A DNA stretch of 51,401 nt, taken from positions 1 to 51,401 of the forward strand of contig JBBDNJ010000332.1 of NCBI GenBank assembly GCA_040877705.1, read 5' to 3'. This DNA comes from Candidatus Binatia bacterium. GTDB taxonomy: Bacteria > Desulfobacterota > Binatia > UBA9968. Below the pieces are notes generated by a model. It searched no databases. It saw nothing but the letters and a program-made list of their open reading frames with translations, and was not told the origin of the DNA. Numbering within the stretch: position 1 is the first letter of the stretch; each line of letters begins with the position of its first letter. Positions 14,488 to 25,826 of the stretch are shown one piece after another. The position numbers were made by a program, and so were the translations under genes.

Positions 14488-16386
14488 CTATTTACTTCCA
14501 AAAGTCGCACGGATACCGAGTAGGAAATTTAGCGGTCGTGCGCGAAAGCCGTCCGCTTCCTCATATTTCTTATTGAATAAATTTTCGATCTTGCCAAATA
14601 ACGCTACGTTCTTTACTCCCGGTGTTTGCCACGGCAGCGTATAGGAAGAGGCAAGATCAACCCTAACGTAAGCCGGATCTTTGATGTTGGCGCCAGTTTG
14701 AACGTCGAAGTCGTCTCTTCTGCCAACGATGTTGGCGTTGAGATTGGCGTGAAAAGCTTCTTGCCGGTAGTTGAGTTGAACATTGCCGCGATGCCGAGGG
14801 CGGCGCGCTAGGACGCCTGTGGAAGTCTCGCTTTCCAGAAAAGTGTAACCGGCTCGTAGGGTAAAGCCGCGGCTTAGATCCAGGTCGCCAAAGACCTCGA
14901 TACCATCGAGTATGACTTTGCCGATATTTATTGGCTGAAAAGTAGGAGGGGTGAATTCTATGAGATCTTTCACTTCCCGGTGAAAATAGGTGAGTCCGAC
15001 AAGCAGTCTCTGCATGAACTTTTGTTCGACGCCGGCGTTGATCTCCCAACTTGTCTCCGGTCCGAGATTGGGGTTGCTAAAACCCGGGAAGAAAAGTTCA
15101 TTCAACATCGGTGCTCTAAATCCTTCAGCGTAACTTACCTTGAATTTGGTTCCAGTCTCCGGGATCGAATAGGCGCCGGAAGCCGAAGGGCTCCATTCGG
15201 TGCCGAAAACTTTATTGTCATCTAGTCGTACTCCGCCGACGAGAACCAGCCGGTCGCCGAAGAACCGTAATTGTTCCTGAAGGTAAGAGGCCATGCTGTC
15301 CTGTTCTTTAGTAAAACTGTCCGTACGCGCTTGCCTGGTTTTGTATTCCAGGCCGAACGTGGTCGTGCTCCACTCTTGCCAGCGATAGTTGGTTTGAAAC
15401 TCTCCGGTCCAGATCTTCGGGCGAAAGCGGTTCCGGGTTCTAAAATCACAGAAGAACAAGTTCGGTCCAGCACAAAGATTGGATGGGTCCGGGTCGGGGT
15501 CGTCACTGAACTTCTCGTGTTCCTTGAAGAGCGAGCCTGCAAGCCGATATTCCCAGGCTTGAGTTAACTTCTGCTGCCATTCGAGCTTGGCCAGGTAGTC
15601 GGTGACGTTATCACGGGCATTGGGATCAGGCACGGGCACCGGGAAAAAATTATTACTGTTGAATAAACCCACTTCCGTTTTTCGGAAGTGAAAAATTCCT
15701 CGTAGCAAAGTATTGTCCGTCGGCCGGAAGTCCAGGCGGCTCGATGTCGCCAGGTTCCGATAGTCATCGTTGACGCTACGAAAGCCGTCGGTTTCGAAGC
15801 GGGACAAAGAAAAGGAGTATCCCAGCTTTTCTATTCCCCCATTCAAAGAAAAGACTTGGCGATGGGTGTAGCCGTTGCCGCCTTCCACCGAGAGAGTACC
15901 CTCGGGTTTTCCCTTTCCGGCTTTTGTGATGATCTGGATCACTCCCCCGATGGCTTGAGATCCGTAGAGCGTGCCTCCGGAACCGCGGAGAATTTCAATG
16001 CGCTCGACATTTTCCGTCGTGAGATGAGCGAAGTTAAACGCTCCGGTGGTTGTGCTGTTGGCCTCTATACCGTCGATCAGGACGAGCACGTGATCCGATT
16101 CGGAGCCGCGAATGAATACCGAAGTCGTATTGCCCCGTGAGCCCGATTGAACGACGTCCACACTTGGCACTTCACGCAGTAGTTCCAGAACCGTTTCTGC
16201 TTGCCGGTTTTTGATGTCTTCCGCGGTGATGACGGTTAGGGAAGTCGTCAATTGCTCGGGTGAAATTTCCGTCCGTGTCGCCGTCACGACAACACCGGGC
16301 AGAGTAGGTTCCGCCGAGCTCTGGGCGAGGCCAAGTTCTGGCAGAACAAAAAGGATACCGATCAATGAGAGAATAAACCTATACAT
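14488..16386 (-). CDS. btuB: TonB-dependent outer-membrane receptor, vitamin B12 type
   Basis: Signal peptide, TonB box region (PGVVVTATR), plug (SVDVVQSGSRGNTTSVFIRGSESDHVLVLIDG), long beta-barrel. Preceded by a cobalamin riboswitch. Confidence 0.9.
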   Translation of the reverse strand: MYRFILSLIGILFVLPELGLAQSSAEPTLPGVVVTATRTEISPEQLTTSLTVITAEDIKNRQAETVLELLREVPSVDVVQSGSRGNTTSVFIRGSESDHVLVLIDGIEANSTTTGAFNFAHLTTENVERIEILRGSGGTLYGSQAIGGVIQIITKAGKGKPEGTLSVEGGNGYTHRQVFSLNGGIEKLGYSFSLSRFETDGFRSVNDDYRNLATSSRLDFRPTDNTLLRGIFHFRKTEVGLFNSNNFFPVPVPDPNARDNVTDYLAKLEWQQKLTQAWEYRLAGSLFKEHEKFSDDPDPDPSNLCAGPNLFFCDFRTRNRFRPKIWTGEFQTNYRWQEWSTTTFGLEYKTRQARTDSFTKEQDSMASYLQEQLRFFGDRLVLVGGVRLDDNKVFGTEWSPSASGAYSIPETGTKFKVSYAEGFRAPMLNELFFPGFSNPNLGPETSWEINAGVEQKFMQRLLVGLTYFHREVKDLIEFTPPTFQPINIGKVILDGIEVFGDLDLSRGFTLRAGYTFLESETSTGVLARRPRHRGNVQLNYRQEAFHANLNANIVGRRDDFDVQTGANIKDPAYVRVDLASSYTLPWQTPGVKNVALFGKIENLFNKKYEEADGFRARPLNFLLGIRATFGSK

Positions 16387-16419
16387 ATAAATCTCCTTTT
16401 CCCGCGAAAGGGGAGTTGT

Positions 16420-16600
16420 TGGGGCAGAACGGATCGGTCTCCTGGCTTGAGCTTCAAACCTACTTGCCGCGCCTTCCCATCCTTGGACACGGTTCAGGAC
16501 AGTGGCTAGTGCGTGCGGCGTTCGTAGCTCTTACAGTTGCGGGGCAGCAGAGGATTTTTCACCTCTTTCCCGTAATCCGACTGCGGTTAATCGATTATTT
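16420..16600 (-). promoter_or_regulatory. cobalamin riboswitch (upstream of btuB)
   Basis: Minus strand reads ...GGGAAAGAGGTGAAAAATCCTCTGCTGCCCCGCAACTGTAAG...GCCACTGTCC...GGGAAGGCG...AAGCCAGGAGACC. B12 box is at 16436-16448 and GCCACTG at about 16499-16505. Boundaries approximate. Confidence 0.85.
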
Positions 16601-16621
16601 TTATTGCCCTCCTTAAGCCGA

Positions 16622-17449
16622 CTAGTTTTTAGCGTCGACCAGCCTGAACACTATGGGGATCTGGACTGTGCTGGGGATCTGGCGATCGCCAGCGTGAGCT
16701 GGATGAAAGCGCCACTTTTTCACACTTTCCCTTGCTGCTTGATCCAGTATGACAAAGCCGGAACTACGATTGATGTCAACATTGTCAGGCGTTCCGTAAG
16801 AATCGATCCTGACTTGCAGCAGCACGGTTCCTTCCCACCCCTCTCTCTTTGCTCGTTCGGGGTATTCGGGTGCGGGATTGTATGCGTACCGCGCTTTAGA
16901 GGGGGCTTCACTCGCTGAGGATGCGCCGGTGTCCGATGCCGGCACGGTGGCTTTACTAGCAGGAGAAACGCTACTCGACGTAGTGGGTGCAGTTAAGGGT
17001 GCCGTCAATATTCTTAAAAGACCATCGGTAGGTTTTGGCGCGCTCGGGACTGGTTCGATAGCAGTCTCAACCGGGGGGGCCGGTGCAGTGGGTGATGGGA
17101 CAGCTTCATCGGCTTGTCGAATATCGCTATCTTTACGGGGTGTGGTTTGGCTGGCCGGCCGCTGATTAGAATCGGTTGGATTGAATGGATGCTTGGTATT
17201 ATCAAATTTAGGGGTCCGTTCTCGACGGGTCGGCTTTAGAATTTTCGAAGCCGGCGTTGTTCTGGTCGGTTTGATCGCCGGGCGATGAGCTATCGGTTCA
17301 GTTTCAATGACGGTCCTAATTTCATCACTTGCGAGCTGAAGCGTGACCGGCCGGACCTCTTCTTCCGCGTCGAACGAGGAGCGGATCGGCAACGCAATGA
17401 GCGCCCCGTGCAACGCCAGGGAGGCAATGAAAAACGAGAACAGATTCAT
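16622..17449 (-). CDS. tonB: TonB-family energy transducer
   Basis: N-terminal TM helix (LFSFFIASLALHGALIAL), Pro-rich spacer, C-terminal TonB domain (YPERAKREGWEGTVLLQVRIDSYG...). ATG at 17449 is preceded by GGGAG; the tracked start at 17464 is TTG. Confidence 0.8.
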   Translation of the reverse strand: MNLFSFFIASLALHGALIALPIRSSFDAEEEVRPVTLQLASDEIRTVIETEPIAHRPAIKPTRTTPASKILKPTRRERTPKFDNTKHPFNPTDSNQRPASQTTPRKDSDIRQADEAVPSPTAPAPPVETAIEPVPSAPKPTDGLLRILTAPLTAPTTSSSVSPASKATVPASDTGASSASEAPSKARYAYNPAPEYPERAKREGWEGTVLLQVRIDSYGTPDNVDINRSSGFVILDQAARESVKKWRFHPAHAGDRQIPSTVQIPIVFRLVDAKN

Positions 17450-17524
17450 CCGCTCTGCTCCCAAGCTACATGAGAATTAGGAATCGACGACACTGGAAAC
17501 CTTTCTCTCTCCTCCGGAGAGGTC

Positions 17525-17730
17525 GGTCTATGGCTCTAAGGAGGTCTCCTGGCTTACGAGTAGGGAGGCTTTCCTCCTGCCTTTCACCGCCTTCCCATCG
17601 GCCTGAGGCTGACAGTGGCTGACTAGTGAAAGATCTTACCCGATCACAGTGGCGGGACCGCGCCGGATTTGCACCGGTCTTCCCTTTGACCTTAGAGCAC
17701 CGAAGAGCACCGAGCTGATGTCGCGGAACG
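17525..17730 (-). promoter_or_regulatory. cobalamin riboswitch (upstream of tonB)
   Basis: Minus strand reads AAGGGAAGACCGGTGCAAATCCGGCGCGGTCCCGCCACTGTGA...GCCACTGTCAG...GGGAAGGCGGTGAAAGG...AAGCCAGGAGACC. B12 box at 17543-17555. Boundaries approximate. Confidence 0.85.
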
Positions 17731-17755: not shown

Positions 17756-17940
17756 GCAAACCTTCCATCGTACACCGAAAATGAGGAAGCTTAGCAAGAA
17801 AAACCGCTGGACTGCGGTATAATTACGTATCCCTGGACTAGATAGCATCAAAATTCTTCGCCAAAACGTTGGGAGTTCCTCGGTGATCTTGTCGCGGGCT
17901 CCACTTCTGAGGTAAACAGGATGTTCAACAAGAGCTGACC

Positions 17941-18201
17941 ATGAAAAAGCAAAAGGCAAGTATCGAACGAGTCGAGCGACAATCGGCCGCATTTGTTGCC
18001 GAGCAGGTTGCGAAACTGAAAGAGTCTTTCCCGGAAGCTGTTATAGAGGGCAAGGTCGATTACGAGAAGCTGCGCGCGACCTTGGGCGATGAAGTCGACG
18101 ACCGGCCGGAGCGATACTCGTTTAATTGGGCCGGAAAACGCGACGCGATCCGGCTTCTTCAGACCCCTAGCCGAGCGACGTTGGTTCCAGCAGCATCATA
18201 G
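17941..18201 (+). pseudogene. N-terminal fragment of a type III-like DNA methyltransferase (Mod)
   Basis: 86 aa. ...LKESFPEAVIEGKVDYEKLRATLGDEVDDRPERYSFNWAGKRDAIRLLQTPSRATLVP resembles Mod N-termini. It stops before any catalytic DPPY / AdoMet motif. Confidence 0.6.
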
Positions 18202-18249
18202 TATCGGTCAAAGACGATCGAATTATATTGACCAGGCAGAGAACGTCAG

Positions 18250-18546
18250 ATGAGCCGCATTGCTATTGATCAAGAAGAGATCGCCGGGTTTTGCCGGAAG
18301 CACCATATCAGCAAGCTCGCCTTCTTTGGCTCGGTCCTTCGAGATGATTTTCGCCCCGACAGCGATGTGGATGTACTCGTTGAGTTTGAACCGGGGCACG
18401 TGCCTGGATTGACATTCTTCGCTATGGAAGCGGAGCTTTCAGAAATCTTGGGCCGCAAGGTGGATCTGAATACCCCAAACTTCCTGAGTCGTTACTTTCG
18501 CGATCAAGTCGTGGCCGAGGCCGAGGTTCAATATGTCTCGCCGTGA
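18250..18546 (+). CDS. mntA: MNT-type nucleotidyltransferase (antitoxin of HepT/MNT systems)
   Basis: [21 protein letters not shown] is the GS-x-D-x-D minimal nucleotidyltransferase motif; 98 aa. Confidence 0.8.
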
Positions 18547-18625
18547 CACGACCGTTCCTCTGCGGCACATGCTGGATCATGCCAAAGAGGCGGTCAGCAT
18601 GGCTCGGGATAAAACTCAGGCTTAG
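18533..18625 (+). pseudogene. truncated HepT (DUF86) toxin remnant
   Basis: ATG at 18533 overlaps the MNT 3' end as in HepT/MNT operons. It encodes only [30 protein letters not shown] then TAG at 18623-18625, against more than 110 aa for intact HepT. The R-x4-HxY region is absent. Confidence 0.55.
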
Positions 18626-18716
18626 ACTCTGTCAAAATCTCGTGCGCAAAGTATTTTTTTGACGCTTTCCCACGGGGAAACGCCTCCTGTTAGCCGTTGG
18701 TTTGCTGATTCGAGAA

Positions 18717-19499
18717 TCAAAGTACCAGGCAACCAGCCGCAAGCCCGGTGTAAGGATCGCGGAGAAACAGGATGACAGGAAGGTCGGCTCTGTACTTCAA
18801 TGATCGGATTTGGGAATTGAATCCTTTGCCAAGAGAGTTGGTTACCATACCTGCAAGAATCTTAATAACTGGGTCGTAGTAGAGTGAAATATCAATTGCT
18901 ATAGCAGCCTGCCGCGTTTTTCCCAATTGTTTAGCCTTTGATCTAAAAGCTCGGCGTAATCTTAGCGCAGGTTTGTCATCAAGGAGAAATGATTCAAATC
19001 GAGAGTTTAAGAATTCGCCGTCATTACCATGAATGATCGCTTTTACTTCAATTCGGTACTGTGTATCACCTTGCGTTACAACTATATCAAATCGCCGCTT
19101 TCCTAGATTTGGCTCAGATGTGATTCCCTGAGAAGTAAAGTAATCTAGCAAAATAAGTTCGCTCCACAGTCCTTCAAAATCATCCTGTCTTTTCCAAAAG
19201 AACCGCTTATTGACATCATGGTCGAATGTTAAATTTTTGTATTGGTTCCGTAGCATTTGATAGATTTTGTTGACACCTTGACCAAAATTAGCGGGCAAGA
19301 TCTTAGAGGTAACGAAGCCCTGCCAAAACAACCGAGTGAACAGGTAAGACACTTTATCGTCCTTTCGATTCTTAACCGCATCAGCTTGTTCTTTGAGCCA
19401 GTCCCGGCCTAGGAAATCTTGTTGCAACCCCACAGTAGATATCAGATAGTTCTGATAATCATGTATATGCTCAACTATCCTATTTAACTCTTCTGCCAT
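18717..19499 (-). CDS. PD-(D/E)xK nuclease-like protein, second gene of the candidate defence operon
   Basis: 260 aa. E114 (LWSELILL), D138 (RRFDIVV) and E151-V-K153 (YRIEVKA, nt 19041-19049) have the spacing of a restriction-endonuclease-like core. 11-nt gap to the upstream gene with AGGAAG before the ATG. Confidence 0.6.
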   Translation of the reverse strand: MAEELNRIVEHIHDYQNYLISTVGLQQDFLGRDWLKEQADAVKNRKDDKVSYLFTRLFWQGFVTSKILPANFGQGVNKIYQMLRNQYKNLTFDHDVNKRFFWKRQDDFEGLWSELILLDYFTSQGITSEPNLGKRRFDIVVTQGDTQYRIEVKAIIHGNDGEFLNSRFESFLLDDKPALRLRRAFRSKAKQLGKTRQAAIAIDISLYYDPVIKILAGMVTNSLGKGFNSQIRSLKYRADLPVILFLRDPYTGLAAGCLVL

Positions 19500-19510
19500 T
19501 GTGTCGCTTC

Positions 19511-21598
19511 CTAACGTTTAGAATTCACTAGATTTATCAGTGCGTCTAAATCAACGAGTTGAATCGGCTTATCTTGCACGAAGGAGTACGCTTGAGAAGT
19601 GAACGCGCCCGTCGTAATTATGTAGCCAGATTGTGCTCCCGCGCCCATAAGTGAACCGTAAAACTCTCGAATTACAGGTTCTCCGATTGAAGCATTCCAA
19701 CGTTTGCATTGAACAACAACAAGCTGATGATCTTTACGCATCAACAAGTCTATTCCGTGATCCCCACTTATCGGCGTGATCTCAACCGAGTAGCCCATCT
19801 CGCGAAAGGCCCGTGCAACAAACTCTTCGAAGTCTAAGCGGCTCATGGCGCAGAGCTTGTTAGCGAGGTCTAACGACGTTGCTGATGTAGCGAGGTAGCC
19901 AAATGAAACGAGTGCTTCTCTTGTAAGATTAAGGCTTACGCGTTCTGTCTCATTGGTACGAGTATATTCCAGCAACCTCTTCATCAGAACTCTGGCGTTC
20001 CCCGGAGATCCTTCGCAGTACTTGGCCAGCAAGTCGGCAGCCTCGGGTTCAACAGAGATGTTTTCCTGTTTCGCTATTAACTGCAGCATTTGTCCAATCT
20101 CATGCACGCTGTATGGCGCGAAATCATACACAATCATCCAGCGGCGTAGCCGTTTGTTTACTTGTGAGGGCCTGGATGTTGTACCAATTAGGGTGAAATA
20201 TTTCAGTTCTACATTCGGACCGACGTTGCGGACACTTGAACCCTCTCCCATCGTAATGGCAACGGAAGGATTCTCAAGCACTTGGACCAAAGCCTCGACG
20301 ATCGGTTCTTTGAGCAGGTCGATTCGCTCAACAATAGACAAACCGCCCGCTTGCAATGATATCAGCAAGTCTTCGAGATCTTCAGGCCTGTCGAGTGAAG
20401 CTGCATCGCTGGATTGAATGCTTGTTTGCATTTCATTCGCGATGGCGCCCGCTAAGGTGGCTTTTCCGATCTCGCGTGGTCCGCAGAGTAGCAGGTGAGG
20501 CAAGCGCTGCGAGTTTCGTCTAGCCGTGTCGATCCGTGCCCTTAGATCTTTCTTAATTGCTTCTTGGCCCACATAGTCAAGAAGACATCCAAGGACAGGT
20601 TTGGCGTCAGTAAAGTTATAGACGGCCATCAACCTGCGAAGGCTCCTGTCCACGCGTGCGGAATTTCTGGTTGTTCCAATTAAAGTGAACAGTTTAACGG
20701 GAAGTTGTATGCTCCGCGCAGCAGGTCCCTGTCCAATCATGATATCGATCTGAAAATCTGCAAGCGCAGAAAGCAGACCCTGCAAAACCACTTTATTCAT
20801 CAACTCGATCTGCTCAATGAGGATTATGTGTCCCTCGTCAAGATTAGTAAGTAAGGCCGCTAAATCGCCAGACCCCTCTATAACGGCAGCGCTGGTATAC
20901 CGGATGTTAACTCCCATCTCCCTAGAGATCTCGCGTGCCAACGAAGCTGTCCCAGGTTCGAATGAACCGCAAAGCAGCAGATGAGGCAGTGGCTCGTTTT
21001 TACCCTTTGCTGCCGCGATCAGTCTCTGCAGATCCTGTATAGGATGTTTCAGCTCTGCGTATGTTAGCAGCGCTGAAAAAGTGGACAATTCACGAATGAA
21101 GTTCTCAAGTTCTCTTTCAAGGTCCGTAAGGACTTCCGACCCGCTAACCTGATTCTTGTAGGTTCTCACTTCCGCGAGCGCCGCAGAAATTAGGACAAAC
21201 TTTTCTTTGTAATTGCTAGCGAAACCAGCTTTGGACCGTGCCTCCTTCGCTTTTGACTTTAGTGATTCTAAAATCAAGTTATCTTTCTTCTTTTGATCCT
21301 CAAACCCATTCTTCTTCGCGCTGTATTCGAGCAATAGTGCACTGGGCAACGGCTTACCGGTTGGAATCTCATTTTTTTCGTATTTGAGTAGCGCCTCTGC
21401 CACCTTAATGATCGCGTGACATGCTGAAATTTTATTATTGAGACTCGTATTAGCTTCGAGATTCTTCTTCGACTCGTCAACTGTTTGAGTTCGCTCCGCG
21501 ATGTCCTTTGATATCACGGGATCACATTCGCGGCAGAGACCCTGGATCGAAACCCGCAGAAACCATCCAGCGCGTCCGCAAGTTTTACATGTGGCCAT
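19511..21598 (-). CDS. multidomain protein: CxxC-x14-CxxC zinc ribbon, helical region, two degenerate RuvB-like AAA+ modules, C-terminal Mrr-type restriction endonuclease domain
   Basis: 695 aa. C4/C7/C22/C25 zinc ribbon. aa 185-330 and 345-547 each align to the RuvB core (GVNIRYTSAAVIEGSGDLAALLTNL...DFQIDIMIGQGPAARSIQLPVKLFTLIGTTR versus RuvB [25 protein letters not shown]...[32 protein letters not shown]). aa 586-690 are Mrr_cat-like (FEEFVARAFREMGY...GDHGIDLL...VVVQCKR). Confidence 0.8.
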   Translation of the reverse strand: MATCKTCGRAGWFLRVSIQGLCRECDPVISKDIAERTQTVDESKKNLEANTSLNNKISACHAIIKVAEALLKYEKNEIPTGKPLPSALLLEYSAKKNGFEDQKKKDNLILESLKSKAKEARSKAGFASNYKEKFVLISAALAEVRTYKNQVSGSEVLTDLERELENFIRELSTFSALLTYAELKHPIQDLQRLIAAAKGKNEPLPHLLLCGSFEPGTASLAREISREMGVNIRYTSAAVIEGSGDLAALLTNLDEGHIILIEQIELMNKVVLQGLLSALADFQIDIMIGQGPAARSIQLPVKLFTLIGTTRNSARVDRSLRRLMAVYNFTDAKPVLGCLLDYVGQEAIKKDLRARIDTARRNSQRLPHLLLCGPREIGKATLAGAIANEMQTSIQSSDAASLDRPEDLEDLLISLQAGGLSIVERIDLLKEPIVEALVQVLENPSVAITMGEGSSVRNVGPNVELKYFTLIGTTSRPSQVNKRLRRWMIVYDFAPYSVHEIGQMLQLIAKQENISVEPEAADLLAKYCEGSPGNARVLMKRLLEYTRTNETERVSLNLTREALVSFGYLATSATSLDLANKLCAMSRLDFEEFVARAFREMGYSVEITPISGDHGIDLLMRKDHQLVVVQCKRWNASIGEPVIREFYGSLMGAGAQSGYIITTGAFTSQAYSFVQDKPIQLVDLDALINLVNSKR

Positions 21599-21657
21599 AT
21601 TTTAAAAAAAATTTCGGCAAAGACTGCAGAAATGACGCCGACCCTGCACTAAAAGCG

Positions 21658-21699
21658 TTATGATTCTGCCTTATTATGATTCTCTTGAAATAACGTCAA
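21658..21699 (-). promoter_or_regulatory. candidate promoter/operator region of the defence-like operon
   Basis: Minus strand TTGACG (21694-21699), then CATAAT/TAATAA 15-17 nt downstream. A 10-bp direct repeat TTATGATTCT lies at 21658-21667 and 21674-21683 (plus-strand reading), 60-85 nt upstream of the ATG. Confidence 0.3.
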
Positions 21700-21760
21700 G
21701 AGAAATTGAAAACGAACTAGGATCGGATTGTCTCCACGTTTGGCCATCGCTCTCCGGAAT

Positions 21761-21788
21761 TTTCAACGCCCTGACAATAATTCGTTGA
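21761..21788 (+). repeat. copy A of a 20-nt motif TTTCAACGCCCTGACAATAA with hairpin (TCAACG/CGTTGA)
   Basis: Motif at 21761-21780; stem arms at 21763-21768 and 21783-21788. Confidence 0.6.
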
Positions 21789-22337
21789 GACATAACACCC
21801 AACGTGTAACCCTGACCGTCAGGCCGCGTAGAGAACCCATCCGATCTCCCCGGTCCGTAACCTTTGAGACTATCCGACGCTACCGGAATAAATCCGCAAA
21901 GACGTCCGTATGCCCCGGCGAAGAACGAAACCGACGGTGGTGTCAAAGATCCCGGAGCGCTTTACGCAGGGGACGAGAGGGACTTGCAAATTGTGCAGTC
22001 TGGAGAAGCTGATATGATTTTTTATTCTTCTAATACTGGAATGGCTCCGCTCTCCGATTTGAATATAAGCTTGAACCGAGCGGATTTGGAAAAGGGAACT
22101 GCAAAACGAGCTTGATGAAAAGTTTGCCGACGCGCTTTTAAGTCAGACCGAGAATATTTCAGAGCAAGAATCGCAAGCAACGATGGAACGTGCTTGGTGA
22201 GTGCCTCGATCTTACAAGCCCCGAGAGATCCGATGACCGATAATTTCGATTAGGACAAAGATCTCATGTTCGTTGGAGACAGAAGAACTCTCCACCGTAA
22301 CGCGGTGAGATTAGCGCGTGAATAACTTCCATCTCGT

Positions 22338-22545
22338 TCACATGATCAGCCAAAAAACCAGCGGGATCTTAAAAATGGAAATAAAAGTATTGAGCACGAC
22401 GATGGACGCGGCCAGGCCGGGATCTTGGCGGTAGTTTCCGGTCAGGATGAAATTGATGACCGCAGTCGGCAGCGCGCCGTAGAGAAGCAGCACCTGACGG
22501 TTGACGTCTTCGGCGCCGATCAAGTTCACGGCGAGCCTAGGGGCA
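22338..22545 (-). pseudogene. 3' fragment of an AEC-family (auxin efflux carrier-like) transporter gene
   Basis: ...NLIGAEDVNRQVLLLYGALPTAVINFILTGNYRQDPGLAASIVVLNTFISIFKIPLVFWLIM parallels the last ~70 aa of the intact gene at 24951-25826. About the first 220 codons are missing. Confidence 0.65.
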
Positions 22546-22720
22546 AACCTTTCCTCTACCTGGTTCGCGAGGCAAAGGAGCTTCTGCAACTAAAAAAACT
22601 TCGCCCCAACGAAACCTGAAAGACTATATGCGGCCAAAAGCATTTCAAAGATGCCCCTAGACGTTGACTCAAGATCGTTAGTACTATCGATGAAATACGA
22701 TAGCGGACGAATTTTTTTGT

Positions 22721-22741
22721 TCGGAATTATCAGTTTAACAA
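22721..22741 (+). repeat. left terminal inverted repeat
   Basis: TCGGAATTATCAGTTTAACAA; perfect 21/21 match to the reverse complement of 23656-23676. Confidence 0.85.
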
Positions 22742-22762
22742 AGCAGTACCCCGTGGTATAGG
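22735..22762 (+). promoter_or_regulatory. candidate promoter partly inside the left inverted repeat, implying a leaderless mRNA
   Basis: TTAACA (22735-22740), 16-nt spacer ending in TGG (extended -10 TGn), TATAGG (22757-22762). The ATG at 22769 is 7 nt after the -10 and has no Shine-Dalgarno sequence. Confidence 0.3.
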
Positions 22763-22768
22763 CGCGGC

Positions 22769-23587
22769 ATGGAACAATATCGTAAAGCTTTCATCTATCG
22801 GTTTTGGCAGGAAACAAAACCTTGGTTTACGCCGAAGTCGAAATTGTGGGTTACGATCTCCTTGGCTGTTATTGGCTTTGGCCTCCGTTGGTTTTCGGCT
22901 GGGAGGAGCGAGGCCATAAGTTGGTTTTGGTTTGTCATTGCACCCGTCCTCGTCCTTTTAGTCATGGTATGTTTAATCAATCTTTTTCGCACTTCATCTC
23001 TTTTGCATAAAAAGGCGGAGGACGATCATTCAAAAGAGATCGCTCAAGCAAAAGAAGAGATCTACCGTCTACAAAACGCGGTTGATGAGTTGCAAGCCCT
23101 TATTGCCCCAAAACTCGACATTTTATTCGAAGATCAGCCCAAATACGTCATTGTCGATATGAATCCATTGAATGGGATTTCTCACAGAACTTTTAGAATA
23201 GGCGTAAAAAACCGCAGCATGATTAGCATAGACGCCACGCTTCAATTAACGGAAATATCACCCGATCATGAAAGATTTCACAGTTTGGAGATGGAAGATA
23301 TGACATTCAGTCATCTAAGGCTCCCAAAAGAGTTTTGCAGCTTTAATCTTGCGCCTCAAGACGAAAGGCTAATAGAGATCGTATCAAAACGGGACGGGCA
23401 AGATTACTCAACCAAGATCCGATTACATCTTCCAGCGCCAGACGTTATGGCTCAGGGTTCCTATGTATTTAAGCTCTGCGCGACTGGGTCTAACACGCCA
23501 CCATGCGTGAAACACTTTCAAGTTTCTATAGATAATGGGCACCTTAAATTTGAACTGATCAGATCAAGGCCATCCGTAGTGCGTTGA
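22769..23587 (+). CDS. membrane-anchored protein of unknown function (two N-terminal TM helices, coiled coil, beta-rich C-terminal domain)
   Basis: 272 aa. TM segments LWVTISLAVIGFGLRWF and FWFVIAPVLVLLVMVCLINLF, then EIAQAKEEIYRLQNAVDELQALI. No DDE, HUH or recombinase motifs seen. Confidence 0.7.
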   Translation: MEQYRKAFIYRFWQETKPWFTPKSKLWVTISLAVIGFGLRWFSAGRSEAISWFWFVIAPVLVLLVMVCLINLFRTSSLLHKKAEDDHSKEIAQAKEEIYRLQNAVDELQALIAPKLDILFEDQPKYVIVDMNPLNGISHRTFRIGVKNRSMISIDATLQLTEISPDHERFHSLEMEDMTFSHLRLPKEFCSFNLAPQDERLIEIVSKRDGQDYSTKIRLHLPAPDVMAQGSYVFKLCATGSNTPPCVKHFQVSIDNGHLKFELIRSRPSVVR

Positions 23588-23608
23588 GCGCTGCTTTCCC
23601 GGGGAAAC

Positions 23609-23638
23609 TTTCAACACCCTGACAATTAGGGTGGTTGA
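23609..23638 (+). repeat. copy B of the 20-nt motif (TTTCAACACCCTGACAATTA) with hairpin
   Basis: Motif at 23609-23628. TCAACACCCT / AGGGT-G-GTTGA forms a 10-bp stem with a one-base bulge (23611-23638). Confidence 0.6.
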
Positions 23639-23655
23639 TTGGGATTTTATCATCC

Positions 23656-23676
23656 TTGTTAAACTGATAATTCCGA
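23656..23676 (-). repeat. right terminal inverted repeat
   Basis: TTGTTAAACTGATAATTCCGA; reverse complement identical to 22721-22741. Confidence 0.85.
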
Positions 23677-23754
23677 TTTTGTTTCTTCCAATTCCCAAAA
23701 CCTTTCGAGGCTAAGTCTTTACTTTTTAGCTAAATTCGTTTTTTAACCAAAAAT

Positions 23755-23787
23755 TTTCAACGCGACGACAATAAACAGTGTGTCGCG
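23755..23787 (+). repeat. copy C of the 20-nt motif (TTTCAACGCGACGACAATAA) with hairpin (CGCGAC/GTCGCG)
   Basis: Motif at 23755-23774; stem arms at 23761-23766 and 23782-23787. About 75 nt upstream of the ATG at 23850. Confidence 0.6.
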
Positions 23788-23849
23788 ATAAACTACCGAG
23801 CGGTGTGCCCTTAGCTTACCCGTCGAACAGCGAAAGGAGGTTGTTTGGC

Positions 23850-24158
23850 ATGAAATACTCTTTACCTATTTTGAAGTTGTACTTATCAAAGTTCGGTGAT
23901 CAAGACAGCCGGGAGGACGGCAATGCGATTCTCTCCAAAGCTAACACGGTCCCTCTTAACCCGCAAAAATTTAGCAAAAAAGCAGCCCAAGAGGGTGTAC
24001 CTTGGGCTACGTGGCTCGGACTTAAACAGTTGAGTGGGTTTGCCGAAGGAAGCGAGCGGAGATCCGTATTCGTTTATTATCGGCTGCTGCAAGGCGTCAT
24101 CGAAACCTATGTGCTTGTTCGGCCAATCGAAACTCTGGACGCTGTTATAAGCTGCTAA
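23850..24158 (+). CDS. hypothetical protein
   Basis: ATG at 23850 is preceded by GAAAGGAGG (strong RBS). 102 aa, MKYSLPILKLYLSKFGDQDS...; no recognisable family. Confidence 0.45.
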   Translation: MKYSLPILKLYLSKFGDQDSREDGNAILSKANTVPLNPQKFSKKAAQEGVPWATWLGLKQLSGFAEGSERRSVFVYYRLLQGVIETYVLVRPIETLDAVISC

Positions 24159-24547
24159 AGAATCTCACAGATAACGGCACGGGAACGGACACTGCACTCT
24201 CAAATATAAGGCCACTGGCTTTATGGGATGGTCCGAACCAGACTGCCTATCGGCTTTTTCCTCTCCCAGCGCAAACAAAGAAACGGCGCGGCACTGTTAT
24301 TCATGTTGATCACTGCAACCAAGTGGCGTTTTTTTCCTCTTATGTTGATTCGATCTGGCCGCGGATCTGGAAAAATAATTTGCTGGAATACACGGACTAC
24401 GAACTTCTACCGCAGGAGAGAGAAGCCCCTGCTGCTCTGAAAGATAAGAGAATCATTTACCGGAATGTGTTTGTCATGTTGGAAACAGGCTGAGCGCGGA
24501 TCCATAATTTGTGGGTTTCTGTCGTAAACACTTTGGAGGAGAACGAA

Positions 24548-24895
24548 ATGGAACAGTTCGAGGCAAGAATAGAACGGATCGAGTACTCTGAACCAGGAGT
24601 CTTCATTCTGACGATCGTCGTCTCTCCTTTACCTTTGGAAGCACCGGGCCAAGGTAAACCAGTCTACTACAGCATGGAGCTGGACCCAGCAGAACGATCG
24701 ATGAAACCCGTCGGCGATCTCCAGGAAGTATTTGATGTGTATCACCGGTTTGAGTACGACAATAACCTCAACCCTACGCTCAGGAGGCAGTGGAGAACCG
24801 CAGCTCTTGCTGATCAGATAGTTAGCTGCCTCTTTGAATCTCGTGCCTTTAGTTGGTGGCACTTGGATGGCGACGAATCGCAAACCCTGCACTGA
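24548..24895 (+). CDS. hypothetical protein
   Basis: ATG at 24548 is preceded by GGAGGAG. 115 aa, MEQFEARIERIEYSEPGVFILTIVV...; no recognisable family. Confidence 0.5.
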   Translation: MEQFEARIERIEYSEPGVFILTIVVSPLPLEAPGQGKPVYYSMELDPAERSMKPVGDLQEVFDVYHRFEYDNNLNPTLRRQWRTAALADQIVSCLFESRAFSWWHLDGDESQTLH

Positions 24896-24950
24896 GAAGA
24901 GGCCCCTGCCGTTGATTTAGAAGTCATATCGTGAGGAACTTGTGCCTTGG

Positions 24951-25826
24951 TCACAAAATCAACCAGAACACGAAGGGAATAGTCAGCACTGAGATAAAAG
25001 TACTCAAGACCACAATTGAGGCGGCGAGTTCTGGATCTTGGCGATATTTCTCCGTGAGGACGAAATTAATCACCGCGGCGGGGAGCGCGCCGTAGAGAAG
25101 CAAGACCTGGCGATTGACGCCTTCGGCGCCGATCAGATTCACCACAATCGATGCGACCAAAAATCCGCCAAAAATTCGCACCAGGGCGCCGCCGACGGCA
25201 TGGCGCCATTGGAACGACTGAAAATCATGGAGCCGGTAGCCGAGGCTGACGAGCATGATTGGAATGGTCGACTGGCCGAGCATGGAAATGGGCTGGAAGA
25301 GCAACTCCGGAATGCTAATCCGATTTAAACTGAACGTCAGACCGGCAAGGGTTGCATAGATCAACGGCAGGCGAAAACTTTCGGCCCAGTTTCCTCGCCC
25401 GTTCAACAGGTAAAGGCCAAGCGAATACTGGAGAAAGGTAATCATCACAAACATCAAGGTTGCGCGTTGTAAGCCGGCTTCGCCGAAAGCAAACAGCGCC
25501 AATGGGATTCCCATGTTTCCGGCGTTCATGAATAACGCAGGGAGCGCAAACCCGCGCGAACTGAAGCGAAACGCGGAGAAGTAGATTCGGACCAGCAAAC
25601 CAACCCCGGCGAAGATCAACAGCACGCCGCTTAACAAGACCGCGATATCCGCGGCGGACAGGGGCTTTCTCGCGAGGGAAGTAAACACCAGCGACGGAGT
25701 TCCCAAGTAGACGATCAGTTCCGTCACTGGCACGAGACTGATCTTTTTCCAACGGGCAAAGACAAATCCGGTGGCAATGAGTAAAAAAACCGGAACGACG
25801 GGAGAAAGTGGTTCGAATAGTTCCAT
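24951..25826 (-). CDS. AEC-family (auxin efflux carrier-like) membrane transporter
   Basis: 291 aa, polytopic. The C-terminal ...LLLYGALPAAVINFVLTEKYRQDPELAASIVVLSTFISVLTIPFVFWLIL is typical of the membrane transport protein (Mem_trans) family. Confidence 0.85.
   Translation of the reverse strand: MELFEPLSPVVPVFLLIATGFVFARWKKISLVPVTELIVYLGTPSLVFTSLARKPLSAADIAVLLSGVLLIFAGVGLLVRIYFSAFRFSSRGFALPALFMNAGNMGIPLALFAFGEAGLQRATLMFVMITFLQYSLGLYLLNGRGNWAESFRLPLIYATLAGLTFSLNRISIPELLFQPISMLGQSTIPIMLVSLGYRLHDFQSFQWRHAVGGALVRIFGGFLVASIVVNLIGAEGVNRQVLLLYGALPAAVINFVLTEKYRQDPELAASIVVLSTFISVLTIPFVFWLIL

Follow-up and report, generated by a model that had tools for sequence, protein, structure and literature searches.

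Mobile insertion cassettes (MICs) are derivatives of insertion sequences (IS) which, unlike MITEs, carry coding sequence (PMC5444012, PMC3129680). The cognate transposase can move MICs in trans (PMC3129680). The qnrS2 cassette, an MIC, has 22-bp repeats, and MITEs are non-autonomous elements with terminal inverted repeats and short target duplications (PMC5444012). Cassettes without a transposase are rarely annotated since gene-based IS finders need this gene.

In this study we analyzed a contig of 51,401 nucleotides from an uncultured Candidatus Binatia bacterium (JBBDNJ010000332.1), which is called the window throughout. A first-pass annotation had described positions 22721-23676 as a non-autonomous, cargo-carrying cassette with a target duplication and had named an invertible gene segment as the alternative. 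The first of these readings is now supported by an empty site in relatives and by an open reading frame (ORF) without transposase features. Accordingly, we consider it probable that 22721-23676 is a non-autonomous, MIC-like transposable cassette which was moved in trans by a transposase encoded elsewhere.

Results

Terminal repeats and flanking duplication

The cassette measures 956 bp (22721-23676) and has perfect 21-bp terminal inverted repeats and a 6-bp flanking direct repeat. Direct reading and a repeat finder located the left terminal inverted repeat, IR-L (TCGGAATTATCAGTTTAACAA), at 22721-22741 on the plus strand and its exact reverse complement, IR-R, at 23656-23676 on the minus strand. 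The two arms of 21 nt are 100% complementary (21/21) and lie 914 nt apart; re-reading both of them reproduced the exact complementarity reported in the first-pass annotation. The motif TTTTGT, which had also been noticed at both outer ends, adjoins these ends directly. Its left copy, a putative target-site duplication, was read at 22715-22720, which is 12-17 nt past the stop codon of a res pseudogene, and the right copy of this 6-bp direct repeat at 23677-23682 (neither with an assigned strand). Beyond these arms the inverted repeat does not continue, as the flanks are direct repeats of each other and not inverted ones.

A perfect inverted repeat of 21 nt is far beyond chance, as had been estimated before. 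The longest perfect inverted repeat in each of 100 block shuffles had 12-16 nt, and the second-longest in the window, with the arms within 5 kb, had 15 nt. Moreover, with up to three mismatches allowed the 21-mer was present at two sites only in the window, and none of 100 shuffles contained any (0/100). For the duplication, the chance that two given 6-mers are identical is about 2.6e-4 at the local base composition. As TTTTGT is rich in T, we give the target duplication somewhat less weight, in line with the earlier view that it is weaker evidence than the inverted repeats.

The G+C content of the cassette is 43.8%, compared to 47% in the surrounding island and 55-56% in the core genome. A single gene of 819 bp fills 86% of the 956 bp. 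In the 3' untranslated part of the cassette a hairpin coincides with a copy of a short motif (TTTCAAC-N-C-NNN-GACAAT, copy D1b, 23606-23628, plus strand), and this hairpin may be a weak terminator.

An empty site in relatives

Two metagenome contigs with flanks of 76-83% identity, L013 and L014, contain the same locus without the cassette. They were reached via homologues of a small ORF on the right-hand side (23850-24158) on short metagenome contigs. Positions 643-772 of L013 match window 22527-22656 (76%) and positions 866-2271 match window 23704-25102 (83%), and in between 94 nt in L013 replace 1048 nt of the window. When window 22600-23800 was aligned with L013 and L014 in MAFFT, which was run without any information on the repeats, a single gap of 955 nt appeared at 22723-23677 and equalled the repeat-bounded unit to within 2 nt. 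The homology on the left passes the res stop codon and reaches IR-L, the shared left flank being 22527-22720. On the right, the 27 nt from the end of the cassette to 23704 align poorly with L013 and L014 (12/29, counted by hand); therefore, this edge of the indel is set by the repeat and the duplication and not by the comparison.

The first-pass annotation had proposed to look for an empty site in relatives; L013 and L014 lack the cassette, and the indel coincides with the repeat-bounded unit. The cassette appears to be an insertion bounded by its repeats. We read it as an insertion because relatives are without the segment, the gap lies at the repeats and the G+C content is foreign. The empty site is known from relatives of only 76-83% identity, and there was no second copy in the collections searched. 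To judge from further contigs, the spacer that took up the insertion is variable in any case: L043 and L044 have a different filling of 345 nt in the same spacer, including an extra copy of the short motif, and in L016 and L017 a gene for an MNT-like nucleotidyltransferase is joined directly to 23708.

Genomic surroundings

On the left, 17 nt separate the cassette from the stop codon of a pseudogene for a type III restriction enzyme (res). What is left of this gene is a 3' remnant on the plus strand with the last 60 codons and two in-frame stops (22527-22703, stop codon 22701-22703), which aligns to an ORF of L013 with the RE_endonuc domain (PF19778). On the other side of the cassette, homology to relatives delimits a conserved right module on the plus strand (23704-25142) which comprises three ORFs (23850-24158, 24228-24440 and 24548-24895) and the 3' end of an AEC gene. 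This module is 83-89% identical to L013, L014, L016, L017, L043 and L044.

Cassette, res remnant and small ORFs belong to an island of about 7.2 kb (17766-24950), which has the AEC transporter on one side and a riboswitch-TonB unit on the other; the relative L003 lacks this island. The AEC protein of L003 is 88% identical, and within about 20 nt of the stop codon of its gene comes sequence homologous to window 17765, and then TonB. The left neighbour of the island is a cobalamin salvage and transport cluster with two cobalamin riboswitches and TonB. Both riboswitches are full-length, lie on the minus strand and score 87 and 85 bits; one (16415-16617) is located upstream of a TonB-dependent receptor gene (14488-16386) and the other (17522-17710) upstream of the TonB gene (16622-17464). 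To the right follow the AEC-family transporter (24951-25826, minus strand) and then cobS, gyrB and gyrA; the gyrB, gyrA, gpsA, rnpA, yidC, jag region was identified as housekeeping by synteny with L001.

Judged by its gene content, the island is a mosaic of decayed defence genes. Besides the parts already described it comprises an N-terminal fragment of a type III methyltransferase (Mod, 17941-18201), the MNT-like nucleotidyltransferase (18250-18546), a 260-aa protein without known function, a minus-strand gene (19511-21598) in which two RuvB-like AAA+ modules are fused to an Mrr nuclease, and a diverged copy of the AEC gene end (last ~200 bp, 73%, 22317-22529).

Several further observations concern the island as a whole. 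L013, L016/L017 and L043/L044 each have a different island arrangement. The 3' end of the AEC gene (~200 bp) is present twice in the same orientation with 73% identity (22317-22529 and 24930-25142), and the fragment copy together with the downstream 400 bp resembles the AEC 3' end and downstream sequence of L002 (71%). A duplicated AEC 3' end is the pattern expected when an island inserts at the end of a gene and supplies its own copy of that end; at the duplication we saw no integrase and no identical core of more than 18 nt. The contigs of the closest relatives, L001 and L002 (AEC proteins 97% and 94% identical), end 200-420 bp past the AEC gene at the island edge (L001 10877-11076, L002 9316-9736), which suggests that strain-level variation at this edge breaks assemblies.

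None of the three small ORFs of the right module could be assigned to a family. The ORF 23850-24158 codes for 102 aa in the window and 154 aa in L013 (P0140), so the window copy may be truncated. Window 24131-24349 is missing in L016 and L017. In addition, the short motif (AAxTTTCAACxCxxxGACAAT) occurs three times, always on the plus strand, with one copy inside the cassette (23606-23628) and two outside (21758-21780 and 23752-23774). At least three matches were found in 3 of 100 shuffles; each copy overlaps a small hairpin, the fold z-scores of which are not significant. The copy upstream of ORF 23850-24158 is kept in L013, L014, L043 and L044, and the extra copy in L043/L044 resembles the one at 21758. 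The small ORFs of the island could have the motif in common as a promoter or operator.

The cargo protein

The sole long ORF inside the cassette (22769-23587, plus strand) encodes a membrane protein of 272 aa. A HMMER scan of 1.84 billion representative proteins revealed 17 remote homologues (E 3e-15 to 6e-4, 196-291 aa, 23-45% identity, full-length alignment), the closest of which is P0122. We count the ORF as a real gene because these 17 homologues align along its whole length; on the available sequences its family appears sparse and fast-evolving, and it is uncharacterised.

A single-sequence AlphaFold model of the protein was poor (pLDDT 51). Instead we used a model built on 18 aligned sequences with a mean pLDDT of 84.6, which predicts an N-terminal hairpin formed by two hydrophobic helices; a long helix follows at residues 46-112 and, towards the C-terminus, a beta-sandwich at 116-264. 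The first-pass annotation had described one ORF of 272 aa with two transmembrane helices, a helix and a beta-rich domain and had recommended a structure prediction; the model matches this description, and the folds found with it were generic. A Foldseek search against the PDB and viral models returned only generic Ig-like or beta-sandwich domains at E ~1e-3 to 1e-4 with low TM-scores. Sequence searches of Pfam, PADLOC, PHROGs and PDB gave no consistent assignment. In domain scans and in the predicted fold the protein is without DDE, HUH, serine or tyrosine recombinase features, and with the Foldseek result these agree with what had been concluded from the translation. Basic residues are located on both sides of the two-helix hairpin; by the positive-inside rule the cargo would therefore probably sit in the inner membrane, and both termini as well as the beta-sandwich would be cytoplasmic.

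A putative promoter in the left repeat

Upstream of the cargo gene we read a putative promoter on the plus strand (22735-22762). It consists of a -35 element TTAACA (22735-22740) within IR-L, a 16-nt spacer and TGG plus TATAGG (22754-22762). A consensus promoter scan did not call it because the -10 element lacks the final T. The ATG of the cargo gene follows 7 nt past the putative -10, which suggests that the mRNA is leaderless. IR-L thus appears to hold the -35 of the cargo gene's own promoter, and with this element supplied by the repeat the cassette would be a self-contained expression unit. Many insertion sequences carry the promoter of the transposase gene partly within the left end.

Between the window and L012, a contig with a cargo homologue, conservation extends from GTTTAACAAAG to the start codon, and none of 2000 shuffles reached the score (0/2000). 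GTGGTATAGG is also present upstream of the cargo homologue in L010. A -10-like element 6-13 nt before the start codon, with no Shine-Dalgarno sequence, was observed in three family members (window 22754-22771, L010 113-137, L042 200-222); it reads TGGTATAGG in the window and in L010 and TATGAT in L042. This suggests that the cargo family may be expressed from leaderless or nearly leaderless mRNAs.

Flanks of the cargo homologues

No flanking inverted repeats were detected around the cargo homologues in L010, L011 and L042, which is consistent with the cargo gene being a captured passenger. The L012 homologue, whose protein is 27% identical to the cargo, is preceded by TCCGAATCAAACGTTTAACAA (positions 51-71), a 16/21 match to IR-L that ends 28 nt before the start codon, and this offset is the same in the window. 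The outer 12 nt of IR-L are matched only 7/12 in L012, and the conserved part coincides with the promoter-like stretch. On the other side, TCCTTGATAAAC (L012 1041-1052) matches the inner end of IR-R at 11/12 positions and lies 66 nt past the L012 stop codon; its counterpart in the window, TCCTTGTTAAAC, lies 65 nt past the cargo stop codon. L012 showed no complementary outer right end, no flanking duplication and no intact right end. It could be a decayed sister cassette or a case of promoter conservation, and a part of IR-L may be conserved as a promoter and not as a transposon end. L012 gives a hint that the cargo gene family and its flanking sequences travel together.

A further similarity concerns L010. 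The 21 nt outside the right duplication, TTCTTCCAATTCCCAAAACCT (23683-23703), match L010 939-959 at 17 of 21 positions, right after the stop codon of the homologue. This score is reached by 14 of 2000 shuffles, and 23683-23703 is unaligned to the empty-site relatives. The match may be due to chance, or the inserted DNA may once have extended further.

Search for further copies and a transposase

Further copies of the 21-bp repeat, for which the first-pass annotation had suggested a search, were found in none of the genome, metagenome or plasmid collections searched. Neither 185,579 species-representative genomes nor the JGI metagenome contigs contain the exact 21-mer. An exact-sequence contig look-up for the cargo protein gave no match, and in a word-indexed protein search the query alone matched; the cassette occurs in no other assembly searched. 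Against plasmids, BLASTN of the repeat yielded one 22/23 match inside a kinase gene (E = 0.3) and nothing meaningful, and neither BLASTN of 22530-24950 nor TBLASTN of the cargo protein gave matches. The repeat sequence did not turn up in a literature search either, and Rfam has no match in 21400-25000.

Two pattern searches returned candidates that were discarded. A degenerate repeat pattern had 20 single, unpaired matches in viral contigs with no cargo-family member at these loci, and we take them as chance. The pattern GTTTAACAA-N10-CGTGGTATA, which represents the promoter and inner repeat, had four matches in species-representative genome contigs; the one inspected, in L021, belongs to an unrelated gene, for which it is an ordinary promoter.

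With respect to a possible partner, no related IS end (ends like TCGGAATTATCAG...), second copy or transposase was found in the window or the public collections searched. Domain scans detected no transposase, integrase, invertase or recombinase domain in any window ORF scanned, which agrees with the earlier remark that there is no invertase nearby. The sequence ATCAGTT(T)AA may resemble IS4/IS231-like ends; the 6-bp duplication, as we take it, does not fit that family. The length of the duplication narrows the field of transposases only loosely.

Discussion

The cassette combines terminal inverted repeats, an abutting direct repeat, the lack of a transposase and one coding sequence unrelated to transposition, as MICs do. 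We infer that a transposase made the insertion, acting in trans. A DDE-type transposase from elsewhere would bind both terminal inverted repeats and carry out a cut-and-paste or copy-in transposition into the spacer just past the res pseudogene stop codon. Staggered cuts 6 bp apart at TTTTGT would then be repaired into the flanking duplication, and the passenger gene would be expressed from its own promoter with the -35 within IR-L. An autonomous insertion sequence was ruled out, as the element has no DDE, HUH, serine or tyrosine transposase of its own. A MITE was ruled out as well, since the 956 bp contain an 819-bp gene with 17 remote homologues.

Four other explanations were considered, all of which we regard as weaker than the MIC reading. 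The invertible segment named in the first-pass annotation would use the 21-bp repeats as crossover sites of an invertase encoded elsewhere, and flipping would switch the expression of the cargo or a neighbour. Known invertible segments, for example the Hin system, are built in this way, with perfect inverted repeats around ~1 kb, and the lack of a transposase would fit as well. However, inversion explains neither the absence of the whole unit in L013 and L014 nor the 6-bp direct repeat, and the window ORFs scanned contain no invertase or recombinase domain. By eye, the 21-mer is also without the two-arm-plus-spacer layout of tyrosine recombinase core sites. Moreover, the likely -35 is situated in the repeat and the -10 inside the segment; therefore a flip would rebuild the same promoter and leave cargo expression unchanged, so that there would be no switch. 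With the presence/absence polymorphism, the direct repeat and a putative promoter that flipping would leave unaffected, this alternative did not hold up and we consider it very improbable. Movement by a route other than a DDE transposase, either site-specific recombination at the repeats (Xer pdif-like) or an undescribed mechanism linked to the family, is unlikely too, albeit less so. It draws on L012, in which a homologue of only 27% identity keeps both the IR-L-like sequence (16/21) and the inner IR-R end (11/12) at the same offsets. Yet conservation in L012 falls on the promoter-like stretch, with just 7/12 matches in the outer 12 nt, the repeats are missing in L010, L011 and L042, and site-specific recombination makes no target duplication. 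A dif/Xer-like reading of the 21-bp repeat was dropped since the repeats, set informally and by eye beside the dif consensus of E. coli, are unlike the 11-6-11 layout of XerC/XerD sites.

The two remaining explanations dispense with transposition. According to one of them, a chance or a regulatory or structural palindrome surrounds a resident gene which the relatives have deleted. The single copy in the collections searched, the variable spacer among relatives and the overlap of the inner half of IR-L with a conserved promoter-like element are all compatible with an immobile gene. Nevertheless, a perfect 21-nt repeat is far beyond chance, the relatives' deletion would need the exact repeat ends together with the loss of one TTTTGT copy, and the G+C content is 11-12 points under that of the core. 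In addition, transcription probably starts downstream of IR-L, and the arms would then not be expected to pair within the mRNA. We judge this reading to be about as unlikely as the other route of movement. Least credible of all is an assembly artefact in which a foreign fragment was spliced in at shared 21-mers. A k of 21 is the default smallest k-mer of MEGAHIT and SPAdes and equals the arm length, the base composition is foreign and the cassette is in no other assembly searched. An assembly path that enters at a sequence and leaves at its reverse complement would, however, run into the reverse-complemented left flank, whereas the flanks are collinear with L013 and L014; graph errors also produce no target duplication. 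As the flanks are collinear and the 6-mers direct instead of inverted, the hairpin or assembly-artefact reading was rejected.

Returning to the MIC-like cassette, the locus would be a clear-cut case, from an uncultured lineage, of how a gene moves in a cassette without a transposase. It points to a sparse, uncharacterised membrane protein family as probable mobile cargo. It also shows the AEC-TonB spacer of this lineage to be a hot spot where sequence is gained and lost and where decayed restriction-modification genes are found. The cassette opens no new mechanism and represents an ordinary kind of non-autonomous mobile element. The sole part that could raise its interest is the hint from L012. 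In a far-reaching version, the cassette would be the first to be recognised from a family of single-gene cassettes that express themselves, with IR-L as -35 of a leaderless gene for a membrane-anchored beta-sandwich protein. Gene and flanks would travel together and settle in defence islands, and the protein might exclude phages or protect against a system next to it; we regard this version as speculative and rather unlikely.

Among described elements, MITEs resemble the cassette in being non-autonomous with terminal inverted repeats and short target duplications. However, they are non-coding, and the example in PMC5444012 has a 75-bp core, whereas the window cassette has 956 bp of which 86% are one gene. 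Hin/Gin-type segments and the invertons of Bacteroides also have a pair of inverted repeats around ~1 kb, but the cassette is without an invertase and shows a flanking direct repeat and a presence/absence polymorphism. The pdif (Xer) modules of Acinetobacter plasmids and the gene cassettes of integrons are likewise small one-gene units without a recombinase of their own. Their ends are different, as pdif modules are bounded by 28-bp XerC/D sites and integron cassettes have attC at one end only, and by eye neither layout is visible in the window cassette; moreover, they make no target duplication, in contrast to the TTTTGT repeat found here.

For the known MICs, such as MIC231 of Bacillus cereus and the qnrS2 cassette of Aeromonas IncU plasmids, the parent IS has generally been identified, whereas no IS with related ends was found for the window cassette. 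The parent of MIC231 is IS231. MIC passengers are a resistance or an enzyme gene, while the cassette described here carries an uncharacterised membrane protein and is known in only one copy. Nonetheless, the known MICs share with it inverted repeats of ~20 bp, the lack of a transposase and one or few passenger genes unrelated to transposition.
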